From an archaeon (GTDB lineage Archaea; Micrarchaeota; Micrarchaeia; Norongarragalinales; UBA97): a stretch of DNA of 29,318 nucleotides. Positions 5,563 through 29,207 of this stretch are shown piece after piece; position 1 is the stretch's first letter; each line of letters opens with the position of its first letter. The position numbers and the translations under genes are program-made. The notes beneath the pieces are model-generated. The model was not told where the DNA came from. It saw nothing but the letters and a program-made list of their open reading frames with translations, and ran no database searches. The DNA lies in the NCBI GenBank assembly GCA_020057405.1, contig JAGVFW010000005.1, positions 1 through 29,318 on the forward strand, written 5' to 3'.

Positions 5563-5604
5563 TTTAAAAACAGCCTCTCTGTAATGGTTGCACCAACAAG
5601 GTGA
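5563..5604 (+). promoter_or_regulatory. TATA box plus Shine-Dalgarno for the probable major pilin
   Basis: TTTAAAAA at 5563-5570 and AAGGTGA at 5598-5604, 7 nt before ATG 5612. Confidence 0.65.
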
Positions 5605-5611
5605 TTTCCCA

Positions 5612-6079
5612 ATGCGTCGTGGCCAAGCCTTTGAGACAATGATGCTCGTAATCAGCGTAATCGTAGCGCTCGCCATCTTGGCGGTGCTCATGAACATCAT
5701 CGGCGGCATTACCGGCATTGGCCAGGGCCAGCCTGACAAGATTATGCACGATGCCCTCAAAGAAATGGTTCAGAAGGGATACGGCTACTCGCAGCCCCAA
5801 GAAGCAGTCATAAAGAAGGCGACAATCATCGACTCAAAGCAAGTGGTAGGCACGGACAACCCCGGATTGAACCCCTTAGAAGTCCAGTTCTTGATTACCG
5901 GCATCACTGCCCTTGAATTGCCTCGCACGCCGAATAAGATAGGCCCGGCATCCACCGACATCAAGCTTTTCATAGTCGTTTGCGGAGACGCAACCAAGGG
6001 CGAACAAGGCAAGTACCGCATCTCAATCGCCAAATCAGCAATCGCTGCGAGCAACGGCTGCGTAATTCCGACCACTTGA
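5612..6079 (+). CDS. Class III signal peptide protein, candidate major pilin (155 aa)
   Basis: MRRG|QAFETMMLVISVIVALAILAVLMNII: basic leader, RG cleavage site, hydrophobic helix. Start moved from the track's 5588 to ATG 5612 because of the SD. One C-terminal Cys pair. Confidence 0.85.
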   Translation: MRRGQAFETMMLVISVIVALAILAVLMNIIGGITGIGQGQPDKIMHDALKEMVQKGYGYSQPQEAVIKKATIIDSKQVVGTDNPGLNPLEVQFLITGITALELPRTPNKIGPASTDIKLFIVVCGDATKGEQGKYRISIAKSAIAASNGCVIPTT

Positions 6080-6119
6080 GTCGGCACGCTTTTATTCCTC
6101 CTTTTCCCACCTAGTGGTC

Positions 6120-6284
6120 ATGAAGCGCGGCGACTGGACTCCCATTTACATGCTGCTAGTCGTCATCATCGCGGCAATCATCATCATCGCGCTGATTAAG
6201 CCCGTCTTTAGCGGCGCGGCCCAGACTGCCGGCTCGAACTTGGGTGCCGCGCGCGGCCTCGCCGGCGGAATGCTTTTCCGCTAG
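6120..6284 (+). CDS. 54-aa Flp-like mini-pilin with class III signal peptide (absent from ORF track)
   Basis: Hand translation MKRG|DWTPIYMLLVVIIAAIIIIALIKPVFSGAAQTAGSNLGAARGLAGGMLFR*. Fills the gap between pilin genes; CTTTTAT lies 24 nt upstream. Confidence 0.85.
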   Translation: MKRGDWTPIYMLLVVIIAAIIIIALIKPVFSGAAQTAGSNLGAARGLAGGMLFR

Positions 6285-6319
6285 CCGACTGTTTTTAATC
6301 CCGTTGCGCTAAGCGTTGC

Positions 6320-7018
6320 ATGCAACGCGGGCAGGCTTCGTGGGGTGTGATGGAAATCCTAATCGCCACCATCATCCTCGGTATGAGTCTGGGTGTCGTC
6401 TTTTATTCTCTTAAGAATGTCGAGGAAATTCGCTGCGTTATAACGCTGAAAGCGAGTATGACCCATTTGCAGAATTCCTTTTGGAAGGTGGCTATGCACG
6501 GTTCTCCCTCCACTGACCGTGTAACCTTAACAATGCCTTCGTGCGGTGACAAGTCGGTTGAGGCCGTGCGTTTCGTCTACTACAAGCAGAAAGAGCTCTG
6601 CCGGTCGTGTCCCGGCCAATACGCCGGGTGCTGGGTAATCGAACCGACTGTTTACGATTATTCTCTCAAGAAATTCTATCGCCTTAACGATGCGTCAGTG
6701 TGCGTGCAAAACAACATGCCATACATTTCACTCACTACCGTCACTACCGGCAAGTGCCTTGGCAATCAGATTTCTAACGAGCCCTGCCCGAACACGGTTC
6801 CCGGCTGCAGAAATGATGTGGAAGGCGGCGTGCCGGAGAACGTTTTCAAGGGGAACGCCAACGGCGACGGGGCGGCAAGCGATTCTAATTCCATTTGGAG
6901 CACTTTTGGCCGCAAGCCGGGCGACCCGCGCACTTTCGTCTTCGAGTTGTCAAAGTCAGTCGAACCGAGCCTTTCAAGCAGCGTACAGATTTGCCCGTTG
7001 ATAGAGTCGGATGATTGA
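6320..7018 (+). CDS. Cys-rich minor pilin-like protein, paralog A
   Basis: MQRG|QASWGVMEILIATIILGMSLGVVFYSL, followed by a Cys-rich extracellular domain. Confidence 0.85.
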   Translation: MQRGQASWGVMEILIATIILGMSLGVVFYSLKNVEEIRCVITLKASMTHLQNSFWKVAMHGSPSTDRVTLTMPSCGDKSVEAVRFVYYKQKELCRSCPGQYAGCWVIEPTVYDYSLKKFYRLNDASVCVQNNMPYISLTTVTTGKCLGNQISNEPCPNTVPGCRNDVEGGVPENVFKGNANGDGAASDSNSIWSTFGRKPGDPRTFVFELSKSVEPSLSSSVQICPLIESDD

Positions 7019-7020
7019 AC

Positions 7021-7043
7021 GGGTTCTTTCGGTGGGAGAACTC
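7021..7043 (+). terminator. Small stem-loop after pilin paralog A
   Basis: GGGTTCTTTC-GGT-GGGAGAACTC pairs over 10 bp using three G-U pairs and is followed by a pyrimidine-rich tract. Confidence 0.3.
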
Positions 7044-7094
7044 CATTTTCCACTTCCATCTGCTTTTATTTACCGCAGCGCTTAAGGTAACACC

Positions 7095-7772
7095 GTGAAT
7101 CGTGCTCAAGCTTCGTGGGGTGTGATGGAAATCCTAATCGCCACCATAATCCTTGGCATGAGCATGGGCGTAGTTTTCTTCTCCCTAAAGAACATCGAGG
7201 AGACGCGCTGCATTGCAGACTTGAAGGGCAGCACTGTCGCACTTCAGAACGCCATGCTCGTCGTCGCCTTTGGAAGCCCTCCGACGACTAAGCGCGTGGC
7301 ATTTAAGATGCCCACCTGCGGGGACAAGTCGGTTGAGGCAGTGCGTTTCGTCTACTACAAGCAGCGCGAGCTCTGCAGGTTGTGTCCGGGCCAGTACGAG
7401 GGATGCTGGGTAATCGAGCCGACAGTCTATGACTTCGTGCAAAAGAAGCTCTACCGGCTTGAGGACGCCGCGGTGTGCGTGCAGATGCCTGCGGACATTT
7501 CAATCGAGGCGGTCATAAGTCCCGAGTGCCTGGGCAGCCAGATGACTGACACGCCGTGCCCCCAGAACTTGCCTGACGGGACCACTTGCAAAATCAAGGA
7601 GACCGCGGGTTTCGCGTCCCCCATTTATGACCCTATCTCCACCCGGTCCGCTTCCGTTTGGCAGACTTTTGGCCGCAAGCAGGGCGACCCCCGCACTTTC
7701 ATTTTCGAACTGTCAAAGGCGGTGACGCCTGGCCTTAGCGGCAGCATCCGGGTCTGCCCAATGGTGAAGTAG
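7095..7772 (+). CDS. Cys-rich minor pilin-like protein, paralog B
   Basis: GTG start; MNRA|QASWGVMEILIATIILGMSMGVVFFSL. Colinear with 6320..7018 (shared CGDKSVEAVRFVYYKQ, CPGQY.GCWVIEPTVYD, TFGRK.GDPRTF.FELSK). Confidence 0.85.
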   Translation: MNRAQASWGVMEILIATIILGMSMGVVFFSLKNIEETRCIADLKGSTVALQNAMLVVAFGSPPTTKRVAFKMPTCGDKSVEAVRFVYYKQRELCRLCPGQYEGCWVIEPTVYDFVQKKLYRLEDAAVCVQMPADISIEAVISPECLGSQMTDTPCPQNLPDGTTCKIKETAGFASPIYDPISTRSASVWQTFGRKQGDPRTFIFELSKAVTPGLSGSIRVCPMVK

Positions 7773-7786
7773 GGGATGAGTGGGCA

Positions 7787-8479
7787 GTGAGGCGCGGCGA
7801 CACTGCAATGTGGGTGCTCACCAAGATGGCGATGCTTTTCTTCATCGCATCGCTTGCGGGCGTGCTCTTGATTTTCGGCGGCTACCAGCAGACGGGCTTG
7901 TGCAACGAGGAGGCCCGCGCAATTAGCGACCGGGTCTCAAGCGGCCTTTCCCAAGTGATTAACTCCCCCGTTGAGGACGAGCGGCGCATCATACAACTAG
8001 AGCCCGCGCTTTCCGTGGGTGACGGCAAGAGCGCCCGCTACACTCTAAACATCACCCGCCGCATCACCGACCGGCCGGAGTTCAACACTCTTTTAATCAG
8101 CGCCTACTCGGATGCCAACCGGGGCTGCAACTCGGGCGTTCAAGTAACCTACAACAAGCGCTGGGACGATGCTAACGACAAGCGCCTGTTTTTCATGCCC
8201 GCAACATCCTCGCCGCCTCGTTATTACCGCGGCGCGTTTGAGACAATGGCACTGCGGCCGTCGGTGCTCAACCCGGCAGTTCAGGGCCCGCGCTCGACTT
8301 TCGTGGCCTTAGTCAAGTGCACGCAAAAGAATGTCGGCAGGAAAGTCTACGTCTTCATCCAGGACTGCACGCAGCAGGACGCGAAGCTCTGCATCGGCTT
8401 CTCTTCCAACAAGCAAGGCGAAAACGCTCCCGGCAGCATCGAGTCGCTTTGCGGTTTTGAGGTGACTCCAACGCCATGA
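7787..8479 (+). CDS. Minor pilin-like protein (class III signal peptide)
   Basis: MRRG|DTAMWVLTKMAMLFFIASLAGVLLIFG; six Cys in the extracellular domain; ATGA overlap with the next gene. Confidence 0.8.
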   Translation: MRRGDTAMWVLTKMAMLFFIASLAGVLLIFGGYQQTGLCNEEARAISDRVSSGLSQVINSPVEDERRIIQLEPALSVGDGKSARYTLNITRRITDRPEFNTLLISAYSDANRGCNSGVQVTYNKRWDDANDKRLFFMPATSSPPRYYRGAFETMALRPSVLNPAVQGPRSTFVALVKCTQKNVGRKVYVFIQDCTQQDAKLCIGFSSNKQGENAPGSIESLCGFEVTPTP

Positions 8480-9066
8480 GGGGAGCAATTGGCCCGATTG
8501 GCGATGACATTCCAAGCATCTTCCCAATCGTCGCGGGAGTGCTCTTGTTCATGTCAACGGCGCTTTACGCAAGCAACCAGCTTTCCGAGCGCAACAGTTA
8601 TCTCGAGCTTTCAAAGGCGGGAATTGGCTTAAGCTACGTCGTCCTTAGCTCGCCTTACATGCGGGACGATTTTTTCAAGGGAGAGTGCACGCAGACTTAC
8701 CGCGATTACGCCGCCCGCAGGCGCGTTGACTTTCTAATCACGGTGAAGAAGTTCTGCCACTACACGGACTTAAACGGCGACATTTTTTCTGTCAAGAACC
8801 CCTACCCGCCGCATCTTTCGCTTGACACTGGAGTGTATGCCGGCGATGGCGGCTACCATCACCTGGGCCTTGCTTGCGGCAGTGACTCTACCAACTGGAA
8901 CGCCGCCCAGGCCCCGTGCGCGGGCGGGGTTTGCAATCTTCTCTTGACTGGCAAGCAGCCCAAAAACTTCCAGTCGTTTAACTTCCCGATTGCGGTTGAC
9001 TGCGGCAAGCAAGAGCCGTTTGTGGGCGTTGGCACGCTTAACATCATCGTTTGGAGGGGCGGATGA
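8476..9066 (+). CDS. Minor pilin-like protein (atypical class III signal peptide)
   Basis: MRG|AIGPIGDDIPSIFPIVAGVLLFMSTALYA; Cys pairs; C-terminal beta-strand 'GTLNIIVWR'; translationally coupled on both sides. Confidence 0.75.
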   Translation: MRGAIGPIGDDIPSIFPIVAGVLLFMSTALYASNQLSERNSYLELSKAGIGLSYVVLSSPYMRDDFFKGECTQTYRDYAARRRVDFLITVKKFCHYTDLNGDIFSVKNPYPPHLSLDTGVYAGDGGYHHLGLACGSDSTNWNAAQAPCAGGVCNLLLTGKQPKNFQSFNFPIAVDCGKQEPFVGVGTLNIIVWRGG

Positions 9067-10004
9067 TGGAAAAAGCGGTCAGGACGGGACGGGAAATGAC
9101 TCGAGGCCAAGCGGCGCTCTTTGACGGCATCATGTTTCTCTTGTTCGCCAGCTTTTCAGTCGCGATGATTTACGTTTTCGTCAACGACTACGGGAAAGCG
9201 CAGGACGAGGCCCTTCGAAGCGGCTACATCCTCGCCTACGTCCAGCAGGCGGGCAAAGTTATTTTCTTCACGCAGGTAAAGACGCTAAAGGACGTGGCAA
9301 ACCCTGTTGGCCTGCCTAACGCGGGGCTTGAAGGGTGCTGGAAGGACCCCGAGTTTCCCTACGCCGCAGCCAGTTGTATTCCCGGGACTGTCGCACGCGG
9401 ATATCCGTACAGTGACTTGGCCGACCCGCTCAAGGGCTGCGCTTCGCTATCAAAATTCGACTTATCGACAGTTTCCGACTTGCTCAAGAAGGACTTGGGC
9501 GACGGGACTGACGAGTCGTTCTCGTGCCTTGACGACCAGTTCGGCAATCCCTCCAGCCAGTCTCCCGGGACTACGCAATTCTGCACAGTGCACGACAATG
9601 CCGGCTGGCGTGACATCCCGCGCGTTCCGGGCAAGATGGCCCTTCGGTGTGTGATGAAGGAGCTCATGAAGCCACTGCAGACCGCCGGGTTCAAGTATTT
9701 CGCCGACTTCGAGCGCGAACAGTCTGCCGGCTCAAGCATTCCGCAAAAAATCTTCAACATCAACGACCCCGACAGCTTCCGCATCACCAACCACTGGGAG
9801 GCGGACGAGGGTAACTGGTATTCGTGCGACAACGTCACTTCAAAGACCCCGCCAAGCCTCGAATATCCTTTCGGTGGCGGTGGCATCGACAACGTGCTCT
9901 CGACGAGCCTGCCGTTTCGCGTGAACAAGGGCAACACTCTAGACGAGACGATGAACTTCGTGCTCCGCGTGTGCATCTGGTCAACTAAAGTCAGCAACAG
10001 GTAA
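9063..10004 (+). CDS. Cys-rich minor pilin-like protein (class III signal peptide)
   Basis: TRG|QAALFDGIMFLLFASFSVAMIYVFV. Start is ATG 9063 (ATGA overlap with upstream stop) or ATG 9096. Ends with beta-strand 'FVLRVCIWS'. Confidence 0.8.
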   Translation: MMEKAVRTGREMTRGQAALFDGIMFLLFASFSVAMIYVFVNDYGKAQDEALRSGYILAYVQQAGKVIFFTQVKTLKDVANPVGLPNAGLEGCWKDPEFPYAAASCIPGTVARGYPYSDLADPLKGCASLSKFDLSTVSDLLKKDLGDGTDESFSCLDDQFGNPSSQSPGTTQFCTVHDNAGWRDIPRVPGKMALRCVMKELMKPLQTAGFKYFADFEREQSAGSSIPQKIFNINDPDSFRITNHWEADEGNWYSCDNVTSKTPPSLEYPFGGGGIDNVLSTSLPFRVNKGNTLDETMNFVLRVCIWSTKVSNR

Positions 10005-12346: not shown

Positions 12347-15300
12347 ATGCGCAAGGCCTTCCTTAGCTCCGACAAGCCGTTTGCAGCACTAGTATTCGCC
12401 GTCCTTGCCCTCCAGCTCTTCTCGCCATTCGCTTTCGCCCAGTCAACGCCGGGCCCCGAGCTTAACCCGACCGTCGGGCCGGAAGCGACGCCGACCCCGA
12501 ATCCCGCAACTGTTTCACCTTCAGCAACCCCGTCAGGGGCTGCCTCTTCGGCAACGCCTGTCCCCGAGCCCTCAAACATCGGCATCTGCACGATAAGCGA
12601 GTTTACGCTCGAAGAATGGAACAAGTTCAGGCAGGCGACGTTTAACTTCAACGGAAAGGAAGTCACCGACAAGAGCGACGCGAAGCTTCGCAGCCAGACG
12701 CCCGGCCAGAATGTCATCGTCAACAACTACAATTTCCCGGCCGAGGACAGCGTGGCTTACATACCTGTTGTCGATGTCGCAAAGTTCTTTCCGGGCCGCA
12801 GCGTCGAGGACGTCGCTGGTGACTTGGGCGTTGCGCCAAACGAGAGCGTGACTATTGCGCAGGTCGCATCAGTCACAGCATCCGACCCCAAGGGTGCTAA
12901 CATCATCGCGCAACTTCGCCAGGCCGTGAAGGGCAAGGGTTCGGCAAACCTCGCGCCGGGCTTTGAGTCGCTTAAGGTGACTCTGCCAAACGGCAGGACT
13001 GTTGCAATGTCGGAACTCTACAAGCTTCAGCAAATCCGCGCGGGCGAAGGGCAGCCCAACGCGTGCCTCATCGACAACGCCGCTTTCAGAGGCCGCCTTG
13101 AATACACTGCGCTTATGAAACAGGACTTGCTAATCGGCGCCGACAGCTCGGGCGCGACGCTTAATCATTCGGCTTGCGAGAGCCGCGAGTGCTCTCACAT
13201 TACCACCGACAGCGTGCGCGCGGCGGTCAACAACTTCGAGGGCAACTTCGTCATCCAGAGCTTCTACGAAAAGGCGATATCTGAAATCGGCGGTTGGTTC
13301 GCGTGGGACTTCCTTTCCTCGGGCGTCCTCGCAATCTATTCCGCAAGCGACCTGAACCTCGCGACGAAGAACATCAAGAGCACCGAAAAATACGTTGACG
13401 ACATCAACAAGATGGGCTTTGAGAAGACGATTTCGCAGGAACTCGTGAACAAGGGAGAGACGAGTGTCGAGGCAAGCGCACTCCGCCGCGAGTTTTCCTC
13501 AAAATTCGGTTCATCCATAGTAGGTAAGGAGCAAAACCTCGACATGCCGCAGGTTGTTGGCAACAAGCTCAAGAGCATTCTTGGAAAAGTGCCTGCCGGG
13601 ACTGGGGATGAGGCGAAACTTGCGATGGAGAAGGCACTAGCGCAATATGATTCGGAAATAGCCGCGCTAAACATCCCTGCACTAGAGTCTGCCTTGAAAG
13701 CAGCCGCAACCGATGGCGATTCCGAGACCAAGCTGAAAATCATTTCAAAGCAACTGGACTTGGCTAACGCGCAACGGGCCGAGATTTTGGGTGAAAAAAA
13801 CGGAATGGTATCGATGGACGCCGCCCTTGGAAAGTATTCCGACATTCTTGTTGCTGACGGCGCCGGCAAGCTCGACGTTGACGCGTCCTACGAGGGCCTT
13901 TTCCAGAAGTACAAGGCAATGGGAAAGCGCGAGGACCAGGTGAACTTTCTCGCTGAGCTTGGCGTCATCAGCGACGACCAGGCGCGCTTGGCAATCTATC
14001 GCGGCAAGCTCGACGGCATTGACCAGCGTTCGTCTTACTGGAATAGCGAGGCTGCGAAAGCCGAGCGGTTCGCCAACTTCGGCGCCCGCCGCGCTTGGCA
14101 GAACGTTCTCATCGGCCTGACTTGGCTCGGTCCCGGCAGGCTTGGCCTCGAACTAGCCGGCCAGATTGTGATGACTTCGGCGACAAAGCCGGACGCCACC
14201 CGCGGCGACTACTTACTCGTCTACATCAACAACGGCGATTTCCTAAACACCTTCCGCCACAGCACGGACTTTTTTGGAATGGGCCGCTTCCTTGAGACGC
14301 TAAGCGAAGTGACGCCGTTCACCGCTCCCTACAAAGCTTACGTCACGAGTCCCATGTACGCCTTCCAGACAATGGGCACCACGACGCAGGAAACAGGTTC
14401 CCTAACTTCGCTAACTCAGACCGACGGCGGCTGGCAGATGCTGACTCAATGGAAGGGCGATTCCGACCTCACACTAGTCGAGGACGTGCGCGACGGCAAG
14501 ACCTGGACGAGCACGGCGTTTAAGACAAACTACCTGCGCTTCAGCGCCGCACTGCAGAAAAAGCCCGCGCTTAGGCAATACCACAACATCCTCCTAAGCA
14601 TCGGTCCCATCCTCAGCTGGACTGTCCTTAAGGTAAGCAACATGCCCCAAGGAATTGTCACCCTCGTTCAACTGCAGCTTTTGGAGTTCTACATTGACAA
14701 CATCGTAGACCCCAACTCTTTTAGCCCCGACGAAGTCTGCTCGCAGGACAAGCTTGACGGCTACCTAAGGATGTACAAGTGGATGGTGGTGTTGAGCAAC
14801 GTCGAGCAGGTCGCGCTCTATTCCGACATCGGCACGTGGGCGGGCCGCGGGCTAACTGCAATGATAGCCGCGCGCGACTGGACTTCAATCTCGAAAGGAA
14901 GCAAATTTATTTCCAAGGGCCTAGGGATTTACCGCAAAGTCCAGGTTGCCGACCCGATAGAGTGGGCCAAGGCCTCCTACGGCCACTTGGCGCTTGAGTA
15001 TTCGCTTTCCTGCAAGGACCCGAGCTACAAAGTAGTTGCCTACCAGAAGATTCCCGAGGCGAGCCAGAAGGCAAGCGCCGTTACCGCAATCAAGAAGAAA
15101 GTTTCCGACCCGCTTGGGATTGACAAGATTACAAACGGCCTTAACGTCGGCGAGGCTTTCAAGGGCATCGGCCAGACTGCAACTCAAGCAGACTTGAAGG
15201 AGATTCTAAACCTCAAGTCGCTTGAGAAGAACCAGAATGGCTTGCTAAAGCCCGCTGACATCAACTACATCCACCTCTACCCCGAGGGTGCCGACATGCA

Positions 15301-17362
15301 GTGGTGGGGCGTTTTCGAGAACCAGTGCTTCAGAAACTGCATGCAGCAATCCGATGGCACTTTCGTGTGCGCTGACGGCAACGGCGTTTACCTAGAGCGC
15401 AATGGAACCCGCATTGACTTGGCCGACCGCGAGCGCGCACTCATGAGCGACTTTCTCCCGTCTCTTGGCTTAGTAGTGCCTAACAAGATTATCACCGCGC
15501 CGCTTGACTGCAGCCCCGACTCGGCGGTTCTCGAGGCGCGAAGCGACGCGACGCTTAACGTGATTGACGGCGGCTGCCCTGCAACCGACTGCGCAATGAA
15601 GTCGCTCGTGCGCGTGAGCGGCAAGAACGTGGGCAATGACTTGAGTGAAGTCATGGGGCCCGTCGAAGTCATCTACACGACCCAAGGCATTGCCTCCCGC
15701 TACAACAACGAGTACCGCTTCATGCGCACAAAGGGCGTAAGGACGCAGGAGTTAAGCACGATACTCAAAGTTCCCATTCCCTTCACCAACCGCACTGAAG
15801 TTGACTTGAACAAGAATGGCGCTACCGGCAGCAACCAAAAGAGCCTCGCCGGCACCGAAGAGCGCTACCGCACGGTGCAAATCATGGGCGACGGCCGCGT
15901 GCGTTCCGACAGCGAACTGGGCGAGCTTCTCACAATCCAGATGCAGAATGGCGTGATTCACTTTGACCGCGCGACGCGCAAGCTCTACGTGCTGATAAAA
16001 ATCCTTGCCATGGCCCCCGGCCGAGACATCACCGGCATCTCGGCCGCACCCGCCACAGTCGCCGGCCCCAAGGCCGACCTTGACAAATTAGCCCGCGACC
16101 TAGACTCGCTAAAGGCGGCCCTCGCCTCGGGCCAACAATTAAACGCCGCCCAACTTGAGCTGCTAAAGTCGATTCTTGAGAAGGGCGCGCCGACGGGCCA
16201 GCTTCTAAACAAGGAAGAGCGCGACAAGCTTGCCGCCATTCTAGACAAGCAGTCAAAGGGCATTTCCCTAAACCAAGCCGAATCGGACTTGCTTAAGAAG
16301 GCACAGTCGGAAGACAAGTTCCCCGGCGTAATCGTGCTTCCGCCCGAAAAGACGCAGACGATTGAAAAGACGCTCAAGGAGCAGGGTGTCGACCCGACTC
16401 TAGTAAAGCAAATCATCGACAAGCTCACCGCAGGCACTCCTCTCTCCGCTGCGGACAAGGCTGCCGCCCAGGACGCCCTAGACAAGTCAGCGGCCGCGGG
16501 CAAGCTCTCCGCCGACCAGGCTTCGACGCTAAAGGCCGACCTTGAGAAGACCATATCGGCTGCCAGCCGCGCTAACGAGATTGCCAACGCTGCCGCTCTC
16601 GACAAGCTTACTGCCGAACAGAAGGCGCTTGCGATAAAGGTTGCCCAAGACGAGGCTGACGCCGCGCGAGCCAGGGCAAAAACCGCTTCAGACAACCCGA
16701 CTCCGGCAATCAAGCTTGGTGGCGTCACCGCAAAAGTGGGCGCAGAGCAGTCCGCGCAAGACTTAAACCGCGCGCTTGAGAAGGTCGGTGGCTTTACGGA
16801 CCTCTCGACTGAGAAAACTGCGCTCCAGTTCGCCACCAACGCCAATGGCGAGTCTGTGCTGCGCACTGCAGACAAGGCAACTGGCGCAACCCAGGAGCTT
16901 AAAATCACTGGCGCGCCCACCCGGGATGGCAATGCCGTTGTCATCCCGACTGACAAGGGGCTGGTGAAGATTGACGTTAATGTGAACAAGGACAACGGCG
17001 CCCCCGTTGTCAACATCAATGGTGCGGGCTTGCGCGATTCCTCGGCACTCATTTTAGCCCAAGGCCCCGGCGGCATGCTGTTCTTTGACCCCAAGACGGG
17101 CACTTGGCAAGTGCGAAACGGCGCTGCAATCGGCGCCGACGGTGCGTTTGGCACCAATGGCATTAGTTACTATGGCAGTCCCGACGGCACGCGCGGCCTG
17201 CCCCAGCAAGGCGCTCTTGGCTATAACCAAATCCTTGGCTCCTCAAGCGGCAACAACCCGCTTTTGGCCCTCCCAAGCTGGCCGGAGCAACCGCCCTTGG
17301 CTGCCGCAATGCTTGCGCTAGTATTGCTTGGAGTGCTTGCGGTTCGATTCAGGCGCAATTAG
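12347..17362 (+). CDS. Very large secreted, C-terminally membrane-anchored protein of unknown function (1671 aa)
   Basis: Sec-type signal peptide ending AFA|Q, Pro/Thr linker, Cys pairs, helical repeats, C-terminal TM helix plus RFRRN. CTTTTAAA lies 24 nt upstream. Confidence 0.9.
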   Translation: MRKAFLSSDKPFAALVFAVLALQLFSPFAFAQSTPGPELNPTVGPEATPTPNPATVSPSATPSGAASSATPVPEPSNIGICTISEFTLEEWNKFRQATFNFNGKEVTDKSDAKLRSQTPGQNVIVNNYNFPAEDSVAYIPVVDVAKFFPGRSVEDVAGDLGVAPNESVTIAQVASVTASDPKGANIIAQLRQAVKGKGSANLAPGFESLKVTLPNGRTVAMSELYKLQQIRAGEGQPNACLIDNAAFRGRLEYTALMKQDLLIGADSSGATLNHSACESRECSHITTDSVRAAVNNFEGNFVIQSFYEKAISEIGGWFAWDFLSSGVLAIYSASDLNLATKNIKSTEKYVDDINKMGFEKTISQELVNKGETSVEASALRREFSSKFGSSIVGKEQNLDMPQVVGNKLKSILGKVPAGTGDEAKLAMEKALAQYDSEIAALNIPALESALKAAATDGDSETKLKIISKQLDLANAQRAEILGEKNGMVSMDAALGKYSDILVADGAGKLDVDASYEGLFQKYKAMGKREDQVNFLAELGVISDDQARLAIYRGKLDGIDQRSSYWNSEAAKAERFANFGARRAWQNVLIGLTWLGPGRLGLELAGQIVMTSATKPDATRGDYLLVYINNGDFLNTFRHSTDFFGMGRFLETLSEVTPFTAPYKAYVTSPMYAFQTMGTTTQETGSLTSLTQTDGGWQMLTQWKGDSDLTLVEDVRDGKTWTSTAFKTNYLRFSAALQKKPALRQYHNILLSIGPILSWTVLKVSNMPQGIVTLVQLQLLEFYIDNIVDPNSFSPDEVCSQDKLDGYLRMYKWMVVLSNVEQVALYSDIGTWAGRGLTAMIAARDWTSISKGSKFISKGLGIYRKVQVADPIEWAKASYGHLALEYSLSCKDPSYKVVAYQKIPEASQKASAVTAIKKKVSDPLGIDKITNGLNVGEAFKGIGQTATQADLKEILNLKSLEKNQNGLLKPADINYIHLYPEGADMQWWGVFENQCFRNCMQQSDGTFVCADGNGVYLERNGTRIDLADRERALMSDFLPSLGLVVPNKIITAPLDCSPDSAVLEARSDATLNVIDGGCPATDCAMKSLVRVSGKNVGNDLSEVMGPVEVIYTTQGIASRYNNEYRFMRTKGVRTQELSTILKVPIPFTNRTEVDLNKNGATGSNQKSLAGTEERYRTVQIMGDGRVRSDSELGELLTIQMQNGVIHFDRATRKLYVLIKILAMAPGRDITGISAAPATVAGPKADLDKLARDLDSLKAALASGQQLNAAQLELLKSILEKGAPTGQLLNKEERDKLAAILDKQSKGISLNQAESDLLKKAQSEDKFPGVIVLPPEKTQTIEKTLKEQGVDPTLVKQIIDKLTAGTPLSAADKAAAQDALDKSAAAGKLSADQASTLKADLEKTISAASRANEIANAAALDKLTAEQKALAIKVAQDEADAARARAKTASDNPTPAIKLGGVTAKVGAEQSAQDLNRALEKVGGFTDLSTEKTALQFATNANGESVLRTADKATGATQELKITGAPTRDGNAVVIPTDKGLVKIDVNVNKDNGAPVVNINGAGLRDSSALILAQGPGGMLFFDPKTGTWQVRNGAAIGADGAFGTNGISYYGSPDGTRGLPQQGALGYNQILGSSSGNNPLLALPSWPEQPPLAAAMLALVLLGVLAVRFRRN
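16121..16640 (+). repeat. About six degenerate helical peptide repeats in the giant protein
   Basis: GQQLNAAQLELLKSILEK / GQLLNKEERDKLAAILDK / GISLNQAESDLLKK / GTPLSAADKAAAQDALDK / GKLSADQASTLKADLEK / DKLTAEQKALAIK. Confidence 0.7.
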
Positions 17363-18426
17363 TAGGCGAACTCTAGTTTTCTGCCCGCTGGCATCTTGAG
17401 CTTGGCGTTAATCTGGTTCACTGCAGTCTGAAGTCGCGCTGCTGATTCAGTTGCCCTTTGCTTGTAGCGGCGTACCAGTGAATCTTGCGCGCGCGAGCGC
17501 TGGACTTTTCCGTGCGCTTTTGCGGCCTTGTCTAGTGCCGCTTGAAGCGCGCTTAGTTCCGTCGCGTTGATTGCGCGGCCCTGTCTAGAAAGCCCGGTTA
17601 CTAGTGTGCTCATCGCGGCGTGGGAAGTCGCTTCGATGTCGTTAGTGGCGGTGAAAAGCGGCAAGTAGCTGGTTGGCGCAGGTTCGTAAGAGCTTGAGGA
17701 CCGCGGCCGGTAAGTGAGCGTGCGTCCGCCCTTCTCTGGTTCGGTTTCCTCGGCTTTCTCTTTTTCAGCCTGTTTTTTTTGCTCTTCCATGAATGCCGTG
17801 TGCTTTTCTTCAGCGAGGAGCCTTGCGGCGTTGACGTCGCGAGCGCCCTTCTGGAGGTTCAGGTTGGTTTCCTCGTCGATTTCAAGCGGGGCGGCTGCCT
17901 TTTCCAGTAGAGCCTGGATTCGCTCGACGTGTTTTTGTGCTTGCGTAATCCTTTGGCTTGAGCCGGTGAGGGGAGCAGCGGCGCTTAAGGAGAACGTCAT
18001 TTCCTGCAGGGTCGGGAGCGCGTTTCCGAAGGCAGCCGCGCGGTTGCGTAGTTCAAGCATTTTTTGGTAGGCGGCTAGCCATTCCTGGTGCTTGTCGCTC
18101 AATTTTTCAGCAATAGTCTCGACTTCCTGCGTGCTTGCCCGCGGGTTAAACCTGATGCCTGAGAAAACCGAGCGTTCCCTGCCGAACTCGGACTCCAGTT
18201 CTGCCGCCCGCCTTGACGCTTCTAAGAGCTTGTCATGGATTTTGGTAGCTTCGTTTAGCTGCTTTTCGACTTGCGGGTGATTTTCCTTGAAGTATTCTTC
18301 CGCGTGCTTTTGCGCCCAGTTCTTAGGCGCGTCCCACTTGAAGAGCGAGCCTACGCGGTGGGCAAAGCGGACTGAAAACGGCAGGCCAACCTGCCTTTCG
18401 GCAGCCCCGCCCCGTGCTTCAACCAT
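17359..18426 (-). CDS. Hypothetical coiled-coil-rich protein starting MVEARGG (355 aa)
   Basis: Long ORF. Start reassigned from 18522 to ATG 18426, supported by ATTTAAG 24 nt upstream on the minus strand, and this removes the overlap with the divergent gene. Stop overlaps the stop of the giant gene. Confidence 0.75.
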   Translation of the reverse strand: MVEARGGAAERQVGLPFSVRFAHRVGSLFKWDAPKNWAQKHAEEYFKENHPQVEKQLNEATKIHDKLLEASRRAAELESEFGRERSVFSGIRFNPRASTQEVETIAEKLSDKHQEWLAAYQKMLELRNRAAAFGNALPTLQEMTFSLSAAAPLTGSSQRITQAQKHVERIQALLEKAAAPLEIDEETNLNLQKGARDVNAARLLAEEKHTAFMEEQKKQAEKEKAEETEPEKGGRTLTYRPRSSSSYEPAPTSYLPLFTATNDIEATSHAAMSTLVTGLSRQGRAINATELSALQAALDKAAKAHGKVQRSRAQDSLVRRYKQRATESAARLQTAVNQINAKLKMPAGRKLEFAY

Positions 18427-18522
18427 AATGGCATTCTTTTGCCGGGCCCGCTTAAATGGCTTTCCTCGCCGGTTGCCAGGGTAATTAATAAAAGGCGGCA
18501 GGGGAACAATTCTTCGAGTCAA
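18427..18522. promoter_or_regulatory. Divergent promoter region between the two MVEARGG genes
   Basis: Minus-strand GGAAAGCC-ATTTAAG (TATA-like at 18451-18457) and plus-strand TTAATAAAA (18485-18493). Confidence 0.6.
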
Positions 18523-20754
18523 ATGGTTGAAGCTCGCGGTGGCGGACTAACTTCGGTTAGGGGAGCTGGCGGCATTTTCAAGCGCTCAATCATAGGCAAT
18601 GCAATTACGCTTCAGTGGCGCCGGCGCATTGTCGAGCCATACGCTAATTTTATCGAGCGCGCCAGCGGTTCCATTCTGGCCGCCGCCGGCAAGTGGGACG
18701 CCGGCGAGATGGTGAACATCGGCGGCAAGTACTACACTTATCACGTGAGCCAAAAAGTGGTTAAGCGCGCGTATGATGGCGCTCCCCGCCCCGGCATGGC
18801 AGGCAAGTACCCGAGCAGCGGTGGCGTCATGCCGCTTGGTACTGCGCCTGACGGTAAGGACCACCGGATGGTGTTGGTTCCGGCAGACCGTCCCAATTTC
18901 TTCAAGTGGATGTGGTGGGGCTTAACCGGCCGCAACCGCGCTCCGGGCGGCACGCTTGCCCAGATGGGCATTGACGGGCCAAAGGGGTTCCGTGACTGGT
19001 CGCGCTATTGGCGCGAGTGGCGCTACTATAGTTACTCGCCTTCAACCGACATGCCTTCCTCGCTCTCAGGGTTTTACTTTGACGGTGTTGGCTCAACCCG
19101 CGGCATGAGCAAAGAGGAAGCAGGCAACGTGCTGGGCAAGGCGCTTACTGATGCAGGCGGGGAGACCGCGTCGCTGCAGCTGATTAAGGAAATGATTACC
19201 AAGCGCTTCCGCTCAAACGGCGTGATGGCCATTACGGGTGAAATGCTTGACGAGGCCCTGCGCATGCACACGATGTACGATGACGACTTGGGCGGCAAGG
19301 GCGAATGGGAGGGCCTTGGCGACTACGCCGAGCCCTACGTCAAGGGAAAAGGAACGCCGGGCGCGAGCTTGACCGAAAGCTGGCCAACGCGCTTAAAACC
19401 AATTGAGACGCCCCAGAAGAACATCGGCGAGCAGCTAAGGAATTTCCGGACCGACTACGACAAGAAGAAACTGGAGTTTGACAAGCTAGCTGACTACATT
19501 TCTGGTCGTGAGGCCGTGCTTAAGCGCCGTGGAGTTAGCGATGTGGATATGAAGACCGAGCTAAGCGCGGAGTATTCGAAGTTGAGCAAGTCAGCCGACG
19601 AACTGAAGGCCTCGACTGAAAAGACAAACAAGTCTGTAAAGGAAAAGACGGCGCGTGTTTACTGGCTTGAGGAGCTTAGCCCGGTGCAGATCATCCGCCT
19701 CTACAATTACCTCTACGTCAAGACTTCGCTTTCTGGCAGTTCGTTCGGCCACCAGGACCGCCAAGTTTACGACAAGGGAGAGTACGTCGACCAGTATGTC
19801 AATGACAAGTGGGTCGGCGGCCAGCGCGACAAGCACGGCGTTTCCGAAGTGGACAAGTACGGCTTGCCGGGTTCTGGCACGCTTGACGCGCACGGCATGC
19901 CAATGCACTACCGCGGCCGTTCGCAGATTTTCCTCAACCAGGGCGGCGTCGCTGGCTTTGGCTGGCAGTCCTTGGGCCAGGAGGTTGGCGGCGACCCGCA
20001 CATGGAATTCGCTTTCGGCCGCGACTTCTGGCCGACTTTCGCGCCCATCTACTTAAGCAAGGCTCGAAGGCTATTGTCGAACCTAAACAGCAAGAACGGC
20101 AAGATTCTCAACTGGTGCATAAATGACAAGCGGGACTTGAGGTCAACCATCAGCAAGTACCGCCAGACGCTCAAAAACGATGCTTACTTGTGGATGAGAA
20201 AAGGAATTCTCGACCACTATGACGACATTGCCTACACTGCAGCCAATACCATGGGCGCGCCCGAGGAGGTAATGCACATGCAGCTCAACCTCCACAATTA
20301 CTCCGACCACGACGCCGGGGAAGACTGGGATGCAATGAGGCGCTCGCTCCACGCCTTCCTCCTTGACCTCGAGCAGTCGGTGCCGCAGTACGTAATCGAG
20401 GGCTACCCCGGCGCGGGCGCTTACTTTGTCAGCAAGCGGCTGAAAAAGCGCTACGCGCTAATCCAGAAGGCAGCTTCAATAGTCTCGCAGCTGCGCGTTG
20501 AGGCGGACGAGAAGAAGCGCGAGGAAATCAAGAAGAACCTCGAGATGCAGTTCAAGCGCCACTGGCTCTCGAAGGAAGAAACCGGCGTTGACCCCGATAG
20601 CCTGACGACCGAGCTTATCACGCTTCTTGAGCGCTATCCGGACCTGCTTAAGCTTTGGACAATGCCCTCAGCGCACAGCGGCTCGCCAACCAAGATTGGT
20701 TCAATACCGGTTACGACCGCTGCAGACCGAACGGGCTCGATGCCGTTTAGATGA
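18523..20754 (+). CDS. Hypothetical protein starting MVEARGG (743 aa)
   Basis: Long ORF with genome-typical codon usage; start reassigned from 18439 to ATG 18523. No recognised domain; Trp-rich patches and a central coiled coil. Confidence 0.8.
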   Translation: MVEARGGGLTSVRGAGGIFKRSIIGNAITLQWRRRIVEPYANFIERASGSILAAAGKWDAGEMVNIGGKYYTYHVSQKVVKRAYDGAPRPGMAGKYPSSGGVMPLGTAPDGKDHRMVLVPADRPNFFKWMWWGLTGRNRAPGGTLAQMGIDGPKGFRDWSRYWREWRYYSYSPSTDMPSSLSGFYFDGVGSTRGMSKEEAGNVLGKALTDAGGETASLQLIKEMITKRFRSNGVMAITGEMLDEALRMHTMYDDDLGGKGEWEGLGDYAEPYVKGKGTPGASLTESWPTRLKPIETPQKNIGEQLRNFRTDYDKKKLEFDKLADYISGREAVLKRRGVSDVDMKTELSAEYSKLSKSADELKASTEKTNKSVKEKTARVYWLEELSPVQIIRLYNYLYVKTSLSGSSFGHQDRQVYDKGEYVDQYVNDKWVGGQRDKHGVSEVDKYGLPGSGTLDAHGMPMHYRGRSQIFLNQGGVAGFGWQSLGQEVGGDPHMEFAFGRDFWPTFAPIYLSKARRLLSNLNSKNGKILNWCINDKRDLRSTISKYRQTLKNDAYLWMRKGILDHYDDIAYTAANTMGAPEEVMHMQLNLHNYSDHDAGEDWDAMRRSLHAFLLDLEQSVPQYVIEGYPGAGAYFVSKRLKKRYALIQKAASIVSQLRVEADEKKREEIKKNLEMQFKRHWLSKEETGVDPDSLTTELITLLERYPDLLKLWTMPSAHSGSPTKIGSIPVTTAADRTGSMPFR

Positions 20755-20771
20755 TATGAGGAAAAACTAAG

Positions 20772-21551
20772 ATGGAACCGGGATTTGAAGCAATAATCAA
20801 GGCCGCAATCAGCGAGGCCGCCCCAGAGGCAATAAAGGCGATAGGCAATGCCTTCAAGGATAAAGTCAAGGCCGACCTGCGCGTGAGGCACGGCAACGAC
20901 AAGATTGACGAGAAGACCCTTGACACTCAAAAGGAGGCATTTTTAGCGCAGTATGGGGCTCTGCTTCACGCCGCTGCCCCCTTCAGCAAGATTGAGCACC
21001 ACTACCTCTACCGCTCAAAGGGCTTTGGTGACATGACGACCAACCTAGCCCGGAGGCTTGCCGACCTGAAGGTGGAAGAAACCGGCTTCACCGACGAGCA
21101 CCCCAAGTACGTCCAGCTTTTCACAAACGCGCTTCACCAAATGCTGATGACTTACCAGACGACGGACCCGCAGCACCCGATGGACTACTGGGCCGAGCGC
21201 ATGGAGAAATTTGTGAGGCCCGAGGACATTGACAAATTGATTGCACCGGGAAAAACGTATGACGCTTACACTAAGCCTTACCTAAACCTCATGGCCCAGG
21301 GCCCGGGCTTCTTCGAACTGACCATGAGACTTGACAATTTCGAGGGAGAAGCACGCCACGCGCCTTTTGAGGACGACATGGGCAAGAAAGGGAAGCACTT
21401 GCGCGACGAGCTAAGGTGGACTGGCGAGCTAACTCCTGAAGGCCGCGTCAAGTTCACGGGCCACGGCTTTGGCATTGGCACTGAAACCATAAATGCAGTC
21501 AAGCAAGCCGCAAAGGTTCACGCGACAAGGATTGCCAAAGAATACCGCTAG
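20772..21551 (+). CDS. Hypothetical protein (259 aa)
   Basis: ATG preceded by GAGG, 17 nt after the upstream stop; probably co-transcribed. Confidence 0.75.
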   Translation: MEPGFEAIIKAAISEAAPEAIKAIGNAFKDKVKADLRVRHGNDKIDEKTLDTQKEAFLAQYGALLHAAAPFSKIEHHYLYRSKGFGDMTTNLARRLADLKVEETGFTDEHPKYVQLFTNALHQMLMTYQTTDPQHPMDYWAERMEKFVRPEDIDKLIAPGKTYDAYTKPYLNLMAQGPGFFELTMRLDNFEGEARHAPFEDDMGKKGKHLRDELRWTGELTPEGRVKFTGHGFGIGTETINAVKQAAKVHATRIAKEYR

Positions 21552-27107: not shown

Positions 27108-27824
27108 TTAGTGCGTCGACCAGAATGCGTAGTAGACGCTAGGCGAGCTGCCTTGGCTATAGCCGTACGAGTAGTACGTGTAGGGCGAGTAGCCGTAGCT
27201 TCCGCACCCGTAGGAGCAGCCGCTTCCGTATCCGCTGCCATAGTTGTAGCCGCTTGAGCCGTAGCCCGAGTAGCCGTTGCCATAGCCGCTTCCGTAGCTG
27301 TTGTACGAGTTAGAGTTGTAGTCGCCGTAGTAGTTGGTGTTGTACGAGTCGCGGATGTAGGTGTTGCCGCCGGACCCGCTGCCGCTTGAGGACGAGATTG
27401 CGCCATAGCTGTAACCCGAGCTGCCGTAAGCGCCGTAGCCCGAGTTGGCTGAACCAGACCCGTAAGTGCCGTAGCCGCGTGAGCCGTAGACGCTCTCGTA
27501 GGCTGCATAGCCGTTGTAGTACTGGTTGTTGTAAGTATAGCCCGTGTCGCGGGGTGCGGTGTCGTAAGCGTGGTAGTTGCCGTTGGAGTCATACCAATTG
27601 GTGTACTTGCTATACGGGTTTGAGTACTGCGAGGCGTAGGGGTTAGTGTTACGCCACTGGAGCGCCTGCTGGTTGTAGTAACTATTAATGTAAACGCAGT
27701 CGCCGGCAGACTGGCTGTAGGTTGCGTATCCGCTGCACGCGCGGCTGTCGACCGCGTTGGCAAAGCCCGCTGCGGCTGCAAGAACGATGACGAGGATCAA
27801 TCCATAAGTCAGGTAACGCAACAT
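27108..27824 (-). CDS. Secreted Tyr/Gly/Ser/Asn-rich low-complexity protein
   Basis: Signal peptide ending ANA; AAGGTGG SD before ATG; about 50 Tyr in 238 aa by hand count. Confidence 0.8.
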   Translation of the reverse strand: MLRYLTYGLILVIVLAAAAGFANAVDSRACSGYATYSQSAGDCVYINSYYNQQALQWRNTNPYASQYSNPYSKYTNWYDSNGNYHAYDTAPRDTGYTYNNQYYNGYAAYESVYGSRGYGTYGSGSANSGYGAYGSSGYSYGAISSSSGSGSGGNTYIRDSYNTNYYGDYNSNSYNSYGSGYGNGYSGYGSSGYNYGSGYGSGCSYGCGSYGYSPYTYYSYGYSQGSSPSVYYAFWSTH

Positions 27825-27944: not shown

Positions 27945-28016
27945 GCCCCGGTGGCGCAGTGGTAGCGCGATTGCCTTGTAAGCAATAGGTCGAGGGTTCA
28001 ACTCCCTCCCGGGGCT
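27945..28016 (+). tRNA. tRNA-Thr(TGT)
   Basis: Acceptor GCCCCGG/CCGGGGC+T, D arm GCGC/GCGC, anticodon arm ATTGC CT TGT AA GCAAT, T arm GAGGG TTCAACT CCCTC. Confidence 0.95.
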
Positions 28017-28699
28017 CTTGATGTAATCTGACGGTACGCATCAATTTTCTTCAAATGCTTCTGGTTCGAGAATCCGATGAGGCTCATCCATTTGTCCAGC
28101 TGGTCTTCGTTGTAGATTACTATTTCGTAGATTTGATGTATTCCGTTCTTTTTCTTCGCAGCATAGATTGAGAAGTATTTTTCTAGGATTTCTTTCAATT
28201 GGAGAAAAAGCGGCTCGCTTGCTATCCTGAGCGTTATTCGTGGATATGGTTTTCGGTAAATCTTGCGATTATCGACGAAAAAATTTCCATCCGTGTCAAA
28301 AATGCCTCGGATTGAGGCAAAAACGAGTTTTTCTCCTCCATTAATGATTTCCGGAGGAATTGAAACGGTGTAAGTTTTGTTTCCCGGAATAAACCCGAGC
28401 CTTTCGGTCAAAAACCCGAAGATTCGCTTTGAACAGATGTTTAAAATCATTGTTCGAGAATCACGCAGCAATATCGTCGGCTTCTTTTGGAATGTTGTTT
28501 CGAGTATCTTGACTAGATATTCTGTAAGATAGTCGTCGTCCAGTTCAGCGTTACCGGTAATGAAAACATGATATTTGGAGTTTCCGCGAACGTCAAGATA
28601 TCCATCAATGGAGCCGTCTCCGATAACTGCCCCTACGAATTCGCATAAGTCTTCCGTTAAGGGCATATCTTCCGTAAGTTCGGCCGTCTGCTTGAGCAT
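27998..28699 (-). CDS. Free-standing double-motif LAGLIDADG homing endonuclease-like protein
   Basis: Motifs FVGAVIGDG and IRGIFDTDG; C-terminal 'IGFSN.KH'; visibly more AT-rich than the flanks; no intein or intron host gene. Confidence 0.88.
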   Translation of the reverse strand: MLKQTAELTEDMPLTEDLCEFVGAVIGDGSIDGYLDVRGNSKYHVFITGNAELDDDYLTEYLVKILETTFQKKPTILLRDSRTMILNICSKRIFGFLTERLGFIPGNKTYTVSIPPEIINGGEKLVFASIRGIFDTDGNFFVDNRKIYRKPYPRITLRIASEPLFLQLKEILEKYFSIYAAKKKNGIHQIYEIVIYNEDQLDKWMSLIGFSNQKHLKKIDAYRQITSRAPGGS

Positions 28700-28790
28700 A
28701 ACAAAATAGGTGTTTTGTAGGGGATCGCTCGTTTCGGGAGGGTGGCTTGCCGGGATGCTATAATATAATTATGGCCAGCGTGACTCTTGT

Positions 28791-29207
28791 ATGCCAGATT
28801 TGAGTGAGAAGATTTCAAAGGAGCTTGCCACCAAGTACGGTTACGTGCCAGGCGAGGCAAAGCAGGTCCTGACGTTTGTCAAAGGCATCCACAACTTCTC
28901 GCACTACTTGGGCAACAACAAGTACTTCAGCGACACTTTGAACAAGCGCGTTGCTGTTCTCTCGCTTGACTGCGACATCCTGTCCCTTAAGGCAGAGCGC
29001 GTGCGCCTCCTTGCTGAAGGCTTCTACACTCAGGTGGAACTTTCGATTGTTGCCAAATCCAAGCCTGCGATTGACAAGGCCAAGGTTGTTGCCTTCAAAA
29101 AAGAGATGCAGGCGGTTCTTGACGAGGCGATGTCAATCAACGACCGCGCCCTAAAGCTCATGGCTGACATCAAGGAAGAGTACGGCGAAAAGGACGGGGC
29201 AAAGTAG
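28791..29207 (+). CDS. Hypothetical alpha-helical protein (138 aa)
   Basis: ORF with genome-typical codon usage; TATAATATAA element upstream at about 28758-28767. Confidence 0.7.
   Translation: MPDLSEKISKELATKYGYVPGEAKQVLTFVKGIHNFSHYLGNNKYFSDTLNKRVAVLSLDCDILSLKAERVRLLAEGFYTQVELSIVAKSKPAIDKAKVVAFKKEMQAVLDEAMSINDRALKLMADIKEEYGEKDGAK

Follow-up and report, generated by a model that had tools for sequence, protein, structure and literature searches.

The two genes considered here lie head to head in contig JAGVFW010000005.1 of the micrarchaeotal assembly GCA_020057405.1 (order Norongarragalinales), from a tiny symbiont, and encode orphan proteins that begin with the same heptapeptide, MVEARGG. 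The stretch analysed (hereinafter the window) spans 29,318 nucleotides (nt) and corresponds to contig C8 of the source genome, which comprises 1.22 Mb in 17 contigs with 56% G+C and is 90.6% complete. The plus-strand gene encodes a protein of 743 amino acids (aa) and starts with an ATG at 18523, and the minus-strand gene encodes one of 355 aa and starts with an ATG at 18426, leaving 96 nt (18427-18522) between the two start codons (Table 1). The first 11 nt of both genes are the same, and the four differences in the following codons of the heptapeptide (GCT/GCA, CGC/CGG, GGT/GGC and GGC/GGG) are each synonymous. A repeat search of the window recovers these codons as a 20-nt inverted repeat that is 85% complementary, with arms 96 nt apart. 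The sequence-only reading had described this arrangement of divergent genes, including the spacing, the 11 common nucleotides and the four synonymous differences, correctly in every detail, and the TATA-like boxes that it had mentioned before each gene could be located at 18485-18493 and 18450-18457.

Table 1. Positions of the two divergent genes, their promoters and shared words in the window, and of the corresponding genes in the metagenome contig L007
Feature	Position	Strand	Details
743-aa orphan protein gene	18523..20754	+	
355-aa orphan protein gene	17359..18426	-	ORF 18426-17359
Codons 1-7 of 743-aa gene, MVEARGG	18523..18543	+	ATGGTTGAAGCTCGCGGTGGC = ATG GTT GAA GCT CGC GGT GGC
Codons 1-7 of 355-aa gene, MVEARGG	18406..18426	-	reverse complement ATGGTTGAAGCACGGGGCGGG = ATG GTT GAA GCA CGG GGC GGG
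Intergenic region with two diverging promoters, 96 nt	18427..18522	.	compared with L007
TATA-like box of plus-strand gene, TTAATAAAA	18485..18493	+	38-30 nt before its ATG; kept in L007
TATA-like box of minus-strand gene, ATTTAAGC	18450..18457	-	31-24 nt before its ATG; kept in L007
Second shared word of plus-strand protein, K57-W-D-A60	18691..18702	+	inside invariant GKWDAGE of its family
Second shared word of minus-strand protein, K30-W-D-A33	18328..18339	-	RWDA in L007
L007 orthologue of plus-strand gene	L007:4001-6508		start ATGGTCGAAGCTCGTGGTGGA = ATG GTC GAA GCT CGT GGT GGA = MVEARGG
L007 orthologue of minus-strand gene	L007:2083-3129	-	start ATGGTAGAAGCGCGGGGCGCC = ATG GTA GAA GCG CGG GGC GCC = MVEARGA

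That these ATGs are the true starts of both genes is borne out by the public gene calls, which use the same two codons (743 aa and 355 aa; 100% identity), and by contig L007 (see below), in which, for both genes, the matching ATG is the earliest start that the preceding stop allows, with an in-frame TAG lying four codons upstream of the ATG of the minus-strand gene. In the window, upstream TTG codons at 18439 and 18522 could lengthen the two open reading frames (ORFs); the extended frames would each cross the promoter of the other gene and overlap one another. When 615 gene starts of the source genome were crudely surveyed for TATA-like words up to 70 nt upstream, 107 of 252 such words were found to begin at -35 to -26, while Shine-Dalgarno-like words peak at -15 to -6. 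The box of the plus-strand gene agrees in its position with the genome-wide TATA peak. Because the positions of the TATA-like boxes match this peak, both genes look to be of the leaderless type common in this genome, each with its own promoter and an inferred transcription start.

Scans with Pfam, PHROGs and NCBIfam, which also took in the neighbouring genes and distant homologues, assigned neither protein to a family. On the Kyte-Doolittle scale neither contains a 19-residue segment scoring at least 1.6, and no membrane helix is predicted in either. The minus-strand protein is modelled as all-helical with a mean predicted local distance difference test (pLDDT) score of 69.8, its residues 1-13 being modelled as disordered with pLDDT below 50. 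The model of the plus-strand protein is poor (mean pLDDT 55.8); its residues 1-16 are likewise modelled as disordered with pLDDT below 50, followed by a predicted helix over residues 16-54 and a hairpin beginning at the KWDA word discussed below. Foldseek searches of the PDB with both models gave no match at E <= 0.001, the plus-strand model being poor, and the ESM Atlas held no usable match for the plus-strand protein. A predicted complex of residues 1-260 of the plus-strand protein with the whole minus-strand protein scored 0.00, which weighs neither for nor against an interaction.

Conservation of the start peptide in a second genome

Both genes recur in L007, a metagenome contig of 18,880 base pairs (bp) with the same gene order: the C-terminal part of a giant surface protein is followed by homologues of the 355-aa gene (on the minus strand), the 743-aa gene and a 259-aa gene. 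The window and L007 are 77.7% identical over the C-terminus of the giant protein and 80.9% over a flanking NicO-like gene, as compared to 44.5%, 45.8% and 31.3% for the 355-aa, 743-aa and 259-aa genes, respectively. Therefore, these three orphan genes evolve much faster than their flanks. Together they make up a fast-evolving orphan block (17359-21551 in the window, L007:2083-7295). In the pair of minus-strand proteins there are just three identical runs of at least six residues over 355 aa, two of which are residues 1-6 and 14-24.

While the remainder of these proteins has diverged, both L007 orthologues retain MVEARG. When the four gene copies are compared, four of the five third positions in codons 2-6 are variable, whereas none of the ten first and second positions is (0/10); by a hand calculation, the probability that four variable sites would all fall on third positions by chance is 5/1365 = 0.004. 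This three-base periodicity of variation argues for selection on the peptide and against an operator or RNA element, and we conclude from the pattern of sequence change that the MVEARG(G) tail is held by purifying selection on its amino acids, and not on the underlying DNA or RNA. Selection on the peptide, as earlier proposed from the window sequence, is thus upheld. The arginine and glycine codons cluster by orthologue, with CGC/CGT and GGT in the plus-strand genes and CGG and GGC in the minus-strand genes. Hence, the motif is older than the split between the two genomes and does not result from recent gene conversion.

The same comparison bears on the idea that an element in the DNA or RNA covers both starts, either as the operator of a shared repressor or as a structure in the 5′ RNA, and thereby co-regulates the pair. 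The 20-nt inverted repeat is consistent with such an element, as are the promoters, which are very conserved between the two genomes: by eye counts on the alignment, 41 of the 45 nt before the plus-strand ATG and 34 of the 42 nt before the minus-strand ATG are the same, with the likeness ending farther upstream, so that the proximal upstream DNA is much better kept than the proteins (~45% identity). However, the sites that vary coincide exactly with third codon positions, and folding of the 5′ 74 nt of each of the four mRNAs does not surpass that of shuffled sequences (z = 0.16, -0.71, -1.10 and 0.21). These points, together with the loss in L007 of the hairpins present in the window, render a regulatory element of this kind quite improbable. 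The hairpins in question are perfect tetraloop structures 25-35 nt after the ATGs, at 18547-18560 on the plus strand (CUAAC-UUCG-GUUAG) and 18391-18404 on the minus strand (CUGCC-GAAA-GGCAG). In neither gene are they significant against shuffles or conserved in L007.

Invertible promoter switches such as fimS and hin have a promoter segment bounded by inverted repeats, and the inverted repeat of the window similarly flanks both promoters. The sequence-only reading had accordingly offered, as its alternative, that the 11-bp inverted repeat bounds an invertible promoter segment. In contrast to those switches, the repeat here is coding, its variation is synonymous and its spacing is not conserved. 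In L007 a mismatch (GTC vs GTA) interrupts the exact repeat, which is shrunk to 5+5 nt, and its arms lie 871 bp apart around a 177-aa ORF, with each gene keeping its own conserved promoter, as it does in both assemblies (2/2). Moreover, no recombinase family was found among the 25 window ORFs scanned. We hence set this alternative aside as highly improbable. The intervening ORF (L007:3223-3756, minus strand) is without a family match and without a tblastn match at E < 1 in the source genome.

Distribution of the peptide and possible origin of the shared start

A shared heptamer is in itself unremarkable. Among 18,776 candidate starts in long ORFs of the source genome, about 12 chance 7-mer matches are expected and 35 shared 7-mers are seen; the seven groups that were inspected are internal motifs of paralogous families, such as the KMSKS loop of class I tRNA ligases and the GGGTGTG loop of FtsZ, or true paralogues, save for one probable chance pair (MEKGVAI). 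What is remarkable is that the two real first ATGs of adjacent genes share one. The probability that the six residues after the methionine agree is 6.6e-8 per pair of starts, and the identity carries weight that those chance matches lack, given that the two genes are neighbours, that each ATG is a genuine first start codon and that both orthologues in a second genome keep the motif. Chance agreement of two unrelated starts is thus barely conceivable. A six-frame scan of the 1.22-Mb source genome finds MVEARGG at these two sites only.

Both protein families are very rare. A search of 1.84 billion representatives at E <= 0.001 places 10 proteins in the family of the plus-strand protein, of which those of the window, L007 and the genome G002 are the three close ones; among 401 genomes drawn from the phylum, two were found to contain the family. 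In G002, which belongs to the same taxonomic family, the giant gene is followed after a 61-nt gap by the plus-strand orthologue and a 280-aa gene, leaving no space for the minus-strand gene; a search elsewhere in G002 (85% complete) with the minus-strand query did not find it either. The plus-strand orthologue of G002 starts with MAEGTFSR, which has only M, E and G in common with the tag. A distant homologue of the minus-strand protein (E = 2e-5, 23% identity) is found in another gene context in G001, a genome of the same genus that is 73% complete; it probably starts with MAVRETPV. Three distant members of the plus-strand family (P0007, P0009 and P0010; 826-866 aa) have the N-terminus MP[YRT]F and also share a conserved helix, I-[IG]-G-x-x-V-T-x-x-[FW]-R-E. 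Viral contigs queried with this distant clade yielded no relative. A protein search with residues 1-60 of the minus-strand protein returned the query alone among seven candidates; it also missed the L007 orthologue, its power being low.

Beyond the heptapeptide, the two proteins share a second word, KWDA, the coding DNA of which forms a perfect 12-nt inverted repeat (18329-18340 and 18690-18701). In the long ORF segments of the source genome, 721,514 aa in all, KWDA occurs only twice, both times in the tagged genes. It is part of GKWDAGE in all three close plus-strand proteins (3/3), and appears as [KR]WDAP in two of the three members of the minus-strand family, with RWDAP in L007; the word is missing in the G001 homologue. 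Of 20,000 shuffles, 594 produce some 4-mer that the two proteins have in common within residues 8-70. BLASTP of one protein against the other gives no match past the first 30 residues (E = 0.24). The earlier description of the proteins as otherwise unrelated should be toned down on account of the second word. Local alignments of residues 8-60 were evaluated in nine mutually dependent pairings, and the six that involve the minus-strand proteins of the window or L007 gave shuffle p values of 0.002-0.03. Sequence comparison thus hints, with homology unproven, that the first ~35 residues of the minus-strand protein descend from the first ~60 of the plus-strand protein. This would agree with the start of the gene having been partially copied in inverted orientation, the narrowly distributed minus-strand family being the recipient.

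Such a copy could also account for the shared peptide by itself. In what we consider the main rival to a shared handle (see below), to which it is identical as regards origin, the peptide would be a relic of the partial inverted duplication of a 5′ end, kept for generic needs, such as a leaderless start or N-terminal stability, without any dedicated reader. The head-to-head layout is the expected remnant of an inverted copy of a gene start, the two shared words are colinear, both genes have leaderless-type promoters and the motif is present on two proteins only, all of which agree with a relic. Yet generic needs would not fix six specific residues in two proteins that have otherwise diverged to 45%; MVEARGG is the start of no other gene in the source genome, and the G002 orthologue manages with a different start. 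We therefore deem a relic of this kind unlikely, though a contender to be taken seriously.

A putative shared handle and its likeness to known signals

We give about an even chance to the explanation that MVEARG(G), as a free N-terminal motif for docking or processing, is read on both proteins by one putative partner. Under this proposal, the two head-to-head genes, each with its leaderless-type promoter, would encode orphan cytoplasmic proteins with the same flexible tail, which would serve as a short linear motif through which a single partner docks, processes or assembles both. Candidates for this partner might include an assembly factor, a peptidase and a site on the surface apparatus whose genes lie nearby. 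The tagged proteins might accordingly be handled together or be competitors for one site. More tentatively, the 5′ end of an older 743-aa gene might have been copied in inverted orientation, by which a younger 355-aa gene would have gained the tag along with (K/R)WDA. As judged from sequences and structural models, the pair displays the features expected of a shared N-terminal motif: the proteins appear unalignable elsewhere, the amino acids of the tag are conserved across genomes and the tail is predicted to be disordered. We also count for the shared handle that G002 has no detected minus-strand gene and a plus-strand protein with a different start.

Several results weigh against this proposal. 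No candidate reader was found. The tag is known from two genomes, with two proteins in each, while tags usually mark more clients: a one-mismatch search of the source genome gave no other convincing match to MVEARGG, and a scan of 68 genomes of the order with the pattern ATGGTNGARGCNMGNGGN, for which a reversed-pattern control gave 0 matches, found just three matches to MVEARG in the 67 genomes besides the source genome. One of these is an ORF of 6 aa, another falls in the interior of a longer ORF, and the third belongs to a 75-aa frame that continues far upstream in frame; none makes a credible start of a gene. The search of related genomes for further starts of this type, which the sequence-only reading had suggested, thus yielded none that is credible. 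The low pLDDT of the tails may merely reflect the alignments of 3-8 sequences underlying the models. As for the proposed copying of the gene start, the three alignment pairings with the G001 homologue gave shuffle p values of 0.15-0.45; hhalign of the two N-terminal alignments gave P = 0.003 with a probability of 10% and in another register; and a genome-wide hmmsearch with the N-terminal profile of the plus-strand protein did not recover the minus-strand gene at E <= 100.

The closest working analogy for a shared handle appears to be the motif of ribosomal protein L27 and Staphylococcus phage 80alpha. The phage's capsid and scaffolding proteins have an N-terminal motif in common with L27 that is read by the protease Prp, and a shared chaperone is also discussed as the purpose of this motif (PMC5744158). 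The likeness lies in non-homologous carriers with one short conserved N-terminal sequence and a single reader, and further in that one carrier is a helical scaffold-like protein whose gene lies beside that of a large structural partner. The systems differ in that the tag is unrelated in sequence and has no F|A site, and in that the locus considered here is archaeal and non-viral. Prp (PF04327) has 0 matches in the 90.6%-complete source genome, and PHROGs gave 0 matches at the tagged locus.

In their mode, though not in sequence, the cargo-loading peptides of bacterial microcompartments and encapsulins and the N-terminal tetrapeptides of Smac, HtrA2 and Reaper that bind inhibitor of apoptosis proteins might offer a parallel, being short terminal peptides on unrelated proteins that are recognized by one receptor, which would be the likely mode of the tag. 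None of these peptides has a sequence likeness to MVEARG(G), and the encapsulin shell (PF04454) has 0 matches in the 90.6%-complete source genome.

Archaeal class III (type IV prepilin) signal peptides are cut by A24 peptidases (PibD/FlaK), and the tag resembles them in that MVEARG is a short leader ending in R5-G6, in agreement with positions -2 and -1 of the pilin leaders of the source genome, some of which are of the form M-x-R-G. This genome also encodes one A24 peptidase (PF01478 match at 46.5 bits, above the cut-off; G000:C3:12434-12745), and a pilus-like locus lies 8 kb from the tagged pair. The tag might thus be cut after R-G by this peptidase, as in the neighbouring pilins, and the sequence-only reading had pointed to the likeness of RG to a prepilin cleavage site. 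However, the 11 leaders of the QxSxEF type, which were chosen by eye from a crude list for the source genome, all have Q at +1 and a hydrophobic helix: they conform to M-x(0-3)-[RK]-[GA] before the cut and Q-x-[SAG]-x-E-[FY] after it, followed by the helix. The +1 residue of the tag is instead G (both window genes and the plus-strand gene of L007) or A (the minus-strand gene of L007). The tagged proteins also have neither a QxSxEF start nor a hydrophobic helix after the site, no 19-residue segment of either reaching the hydrophobicity cut-off. By comparison, five of the six neighbouring pilin-like ORFs have a hydrophobic segment starting at residues 6-12, and in the sixth it starts at residue 20 as counted from an upstream TTG, or at residue 5 from an ATG at 9096. 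The prepilin likeness hence breaks down, and a class III-like tag is very improbable.

The other likeness drawn earlier, to double-glycine leaders, fares no better. These leaders are 15-30 residues long, precede small peptides (bacteriocins) and need an ATP-binding cassette (ABC) exporter with a C39 peptidase. While the tag likewise has a Gly-Gly pair near its N-terminus, this lies at residues 6-7 and the carriers are 355 and 743 aa long, and so the comparison fails on both length and cargo size; Peptidase_C39 (PF03412) has 0 matches in the 90.6%-complete source genome, in which no C39 exporter was found. We do not regard MVEARG(G) as a leader of the general secretory (Sec), twin-arginine translocation (Tat), class III, double-glycine or Prp type. 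No text of a paper containing 'MVEARG', nor work on such a motif, was found in the literature.

A more specific proposal, which we regard as improbable, is that MVEARG(G) constitutes a new sorting or processing signal of the DPANN archaea (Diapherotrites, Parvarchaeota, Aenigmarchaeota, Nanoarchaeota and Nanohaloarchaeota) that hands cytoplasmic, fast-evolving proteins, e.g., host-contact cargo or effectors, to the neighbouring surface apparatus. The earlier suggestion that the pair could be cargo of the pilus or giant-protein locus is speculative. We reserve a similarly small chance for explanations other than those considered here. How DPANN lineages such as the Micrarchaeota build host contacts is poorly understood, and most genes around giant surface proteins are orphans. 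The tagged pair offers a first functional link among the orphan genes behind a giant surface protein gene, and a constant peptide on two fast-diverging proteins provides an experimental handle that could be used as bait for its reader. Should this reader be a peptidase or transport component, the tag would be a new archaeal sorting signal; if there is no such reader, the pair would be a clear, small case of a gene start copied onto a neighbour and then kept by selection.

The neighbouring surface apparatus and other features of the window

In all three genomes compared (3/3), the plus-strand gene and the 259-aa gene come after that of the giant surface protein. In the window, the giant gene (12347-17362, plus strand) encodes a protein of 1671 aa that has a signal peptide and, at its C-terminus, a membrane anchor. 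Its C-terminal end has three parts, namely an LPSWPE-like motif, a membrane helix and a basic tail, RFRRN, which are kept in L007 (L007:81-2009) and more loosely in G002 (L002:1-1404). This organization resembles a sorting signal of the sortase or archaeosortase type; no family was matched.

Farther upstream lies the type IV pilus-like locus, comprising genes for a T2SSE-like ATPase (1133-3397), a weakly T2SSF-like platform protein (3404-5557) and six pilin-like proteins (5588-10004, plus strand) that come after the platform gene. The leaders of these pilin-like proteins are just 3-5 residues long (MRRG/QA, MQRG/QA, MNRA/QA, MRRG/DT, MRG/AI and MTRG/QA, with the slash marking the end of the leader), and the genes at 6320-7018 and 7095-7772 are tandem paralogues.

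Toward the other end of the window, a minus-strand gene (27108-27824) encodes a secreted protein of 238 aa, in which a signal peptide is followed almost entirely by repeats of Y, G, S and N. A LAGLIDADG endonuclease gene (27998-28699, minus strand) overlaps the 3′ end of tRNA-Thr(TGT) (27945-28017, plus strand), and the G+C fraction drops to 0.45 in 28001-29000.

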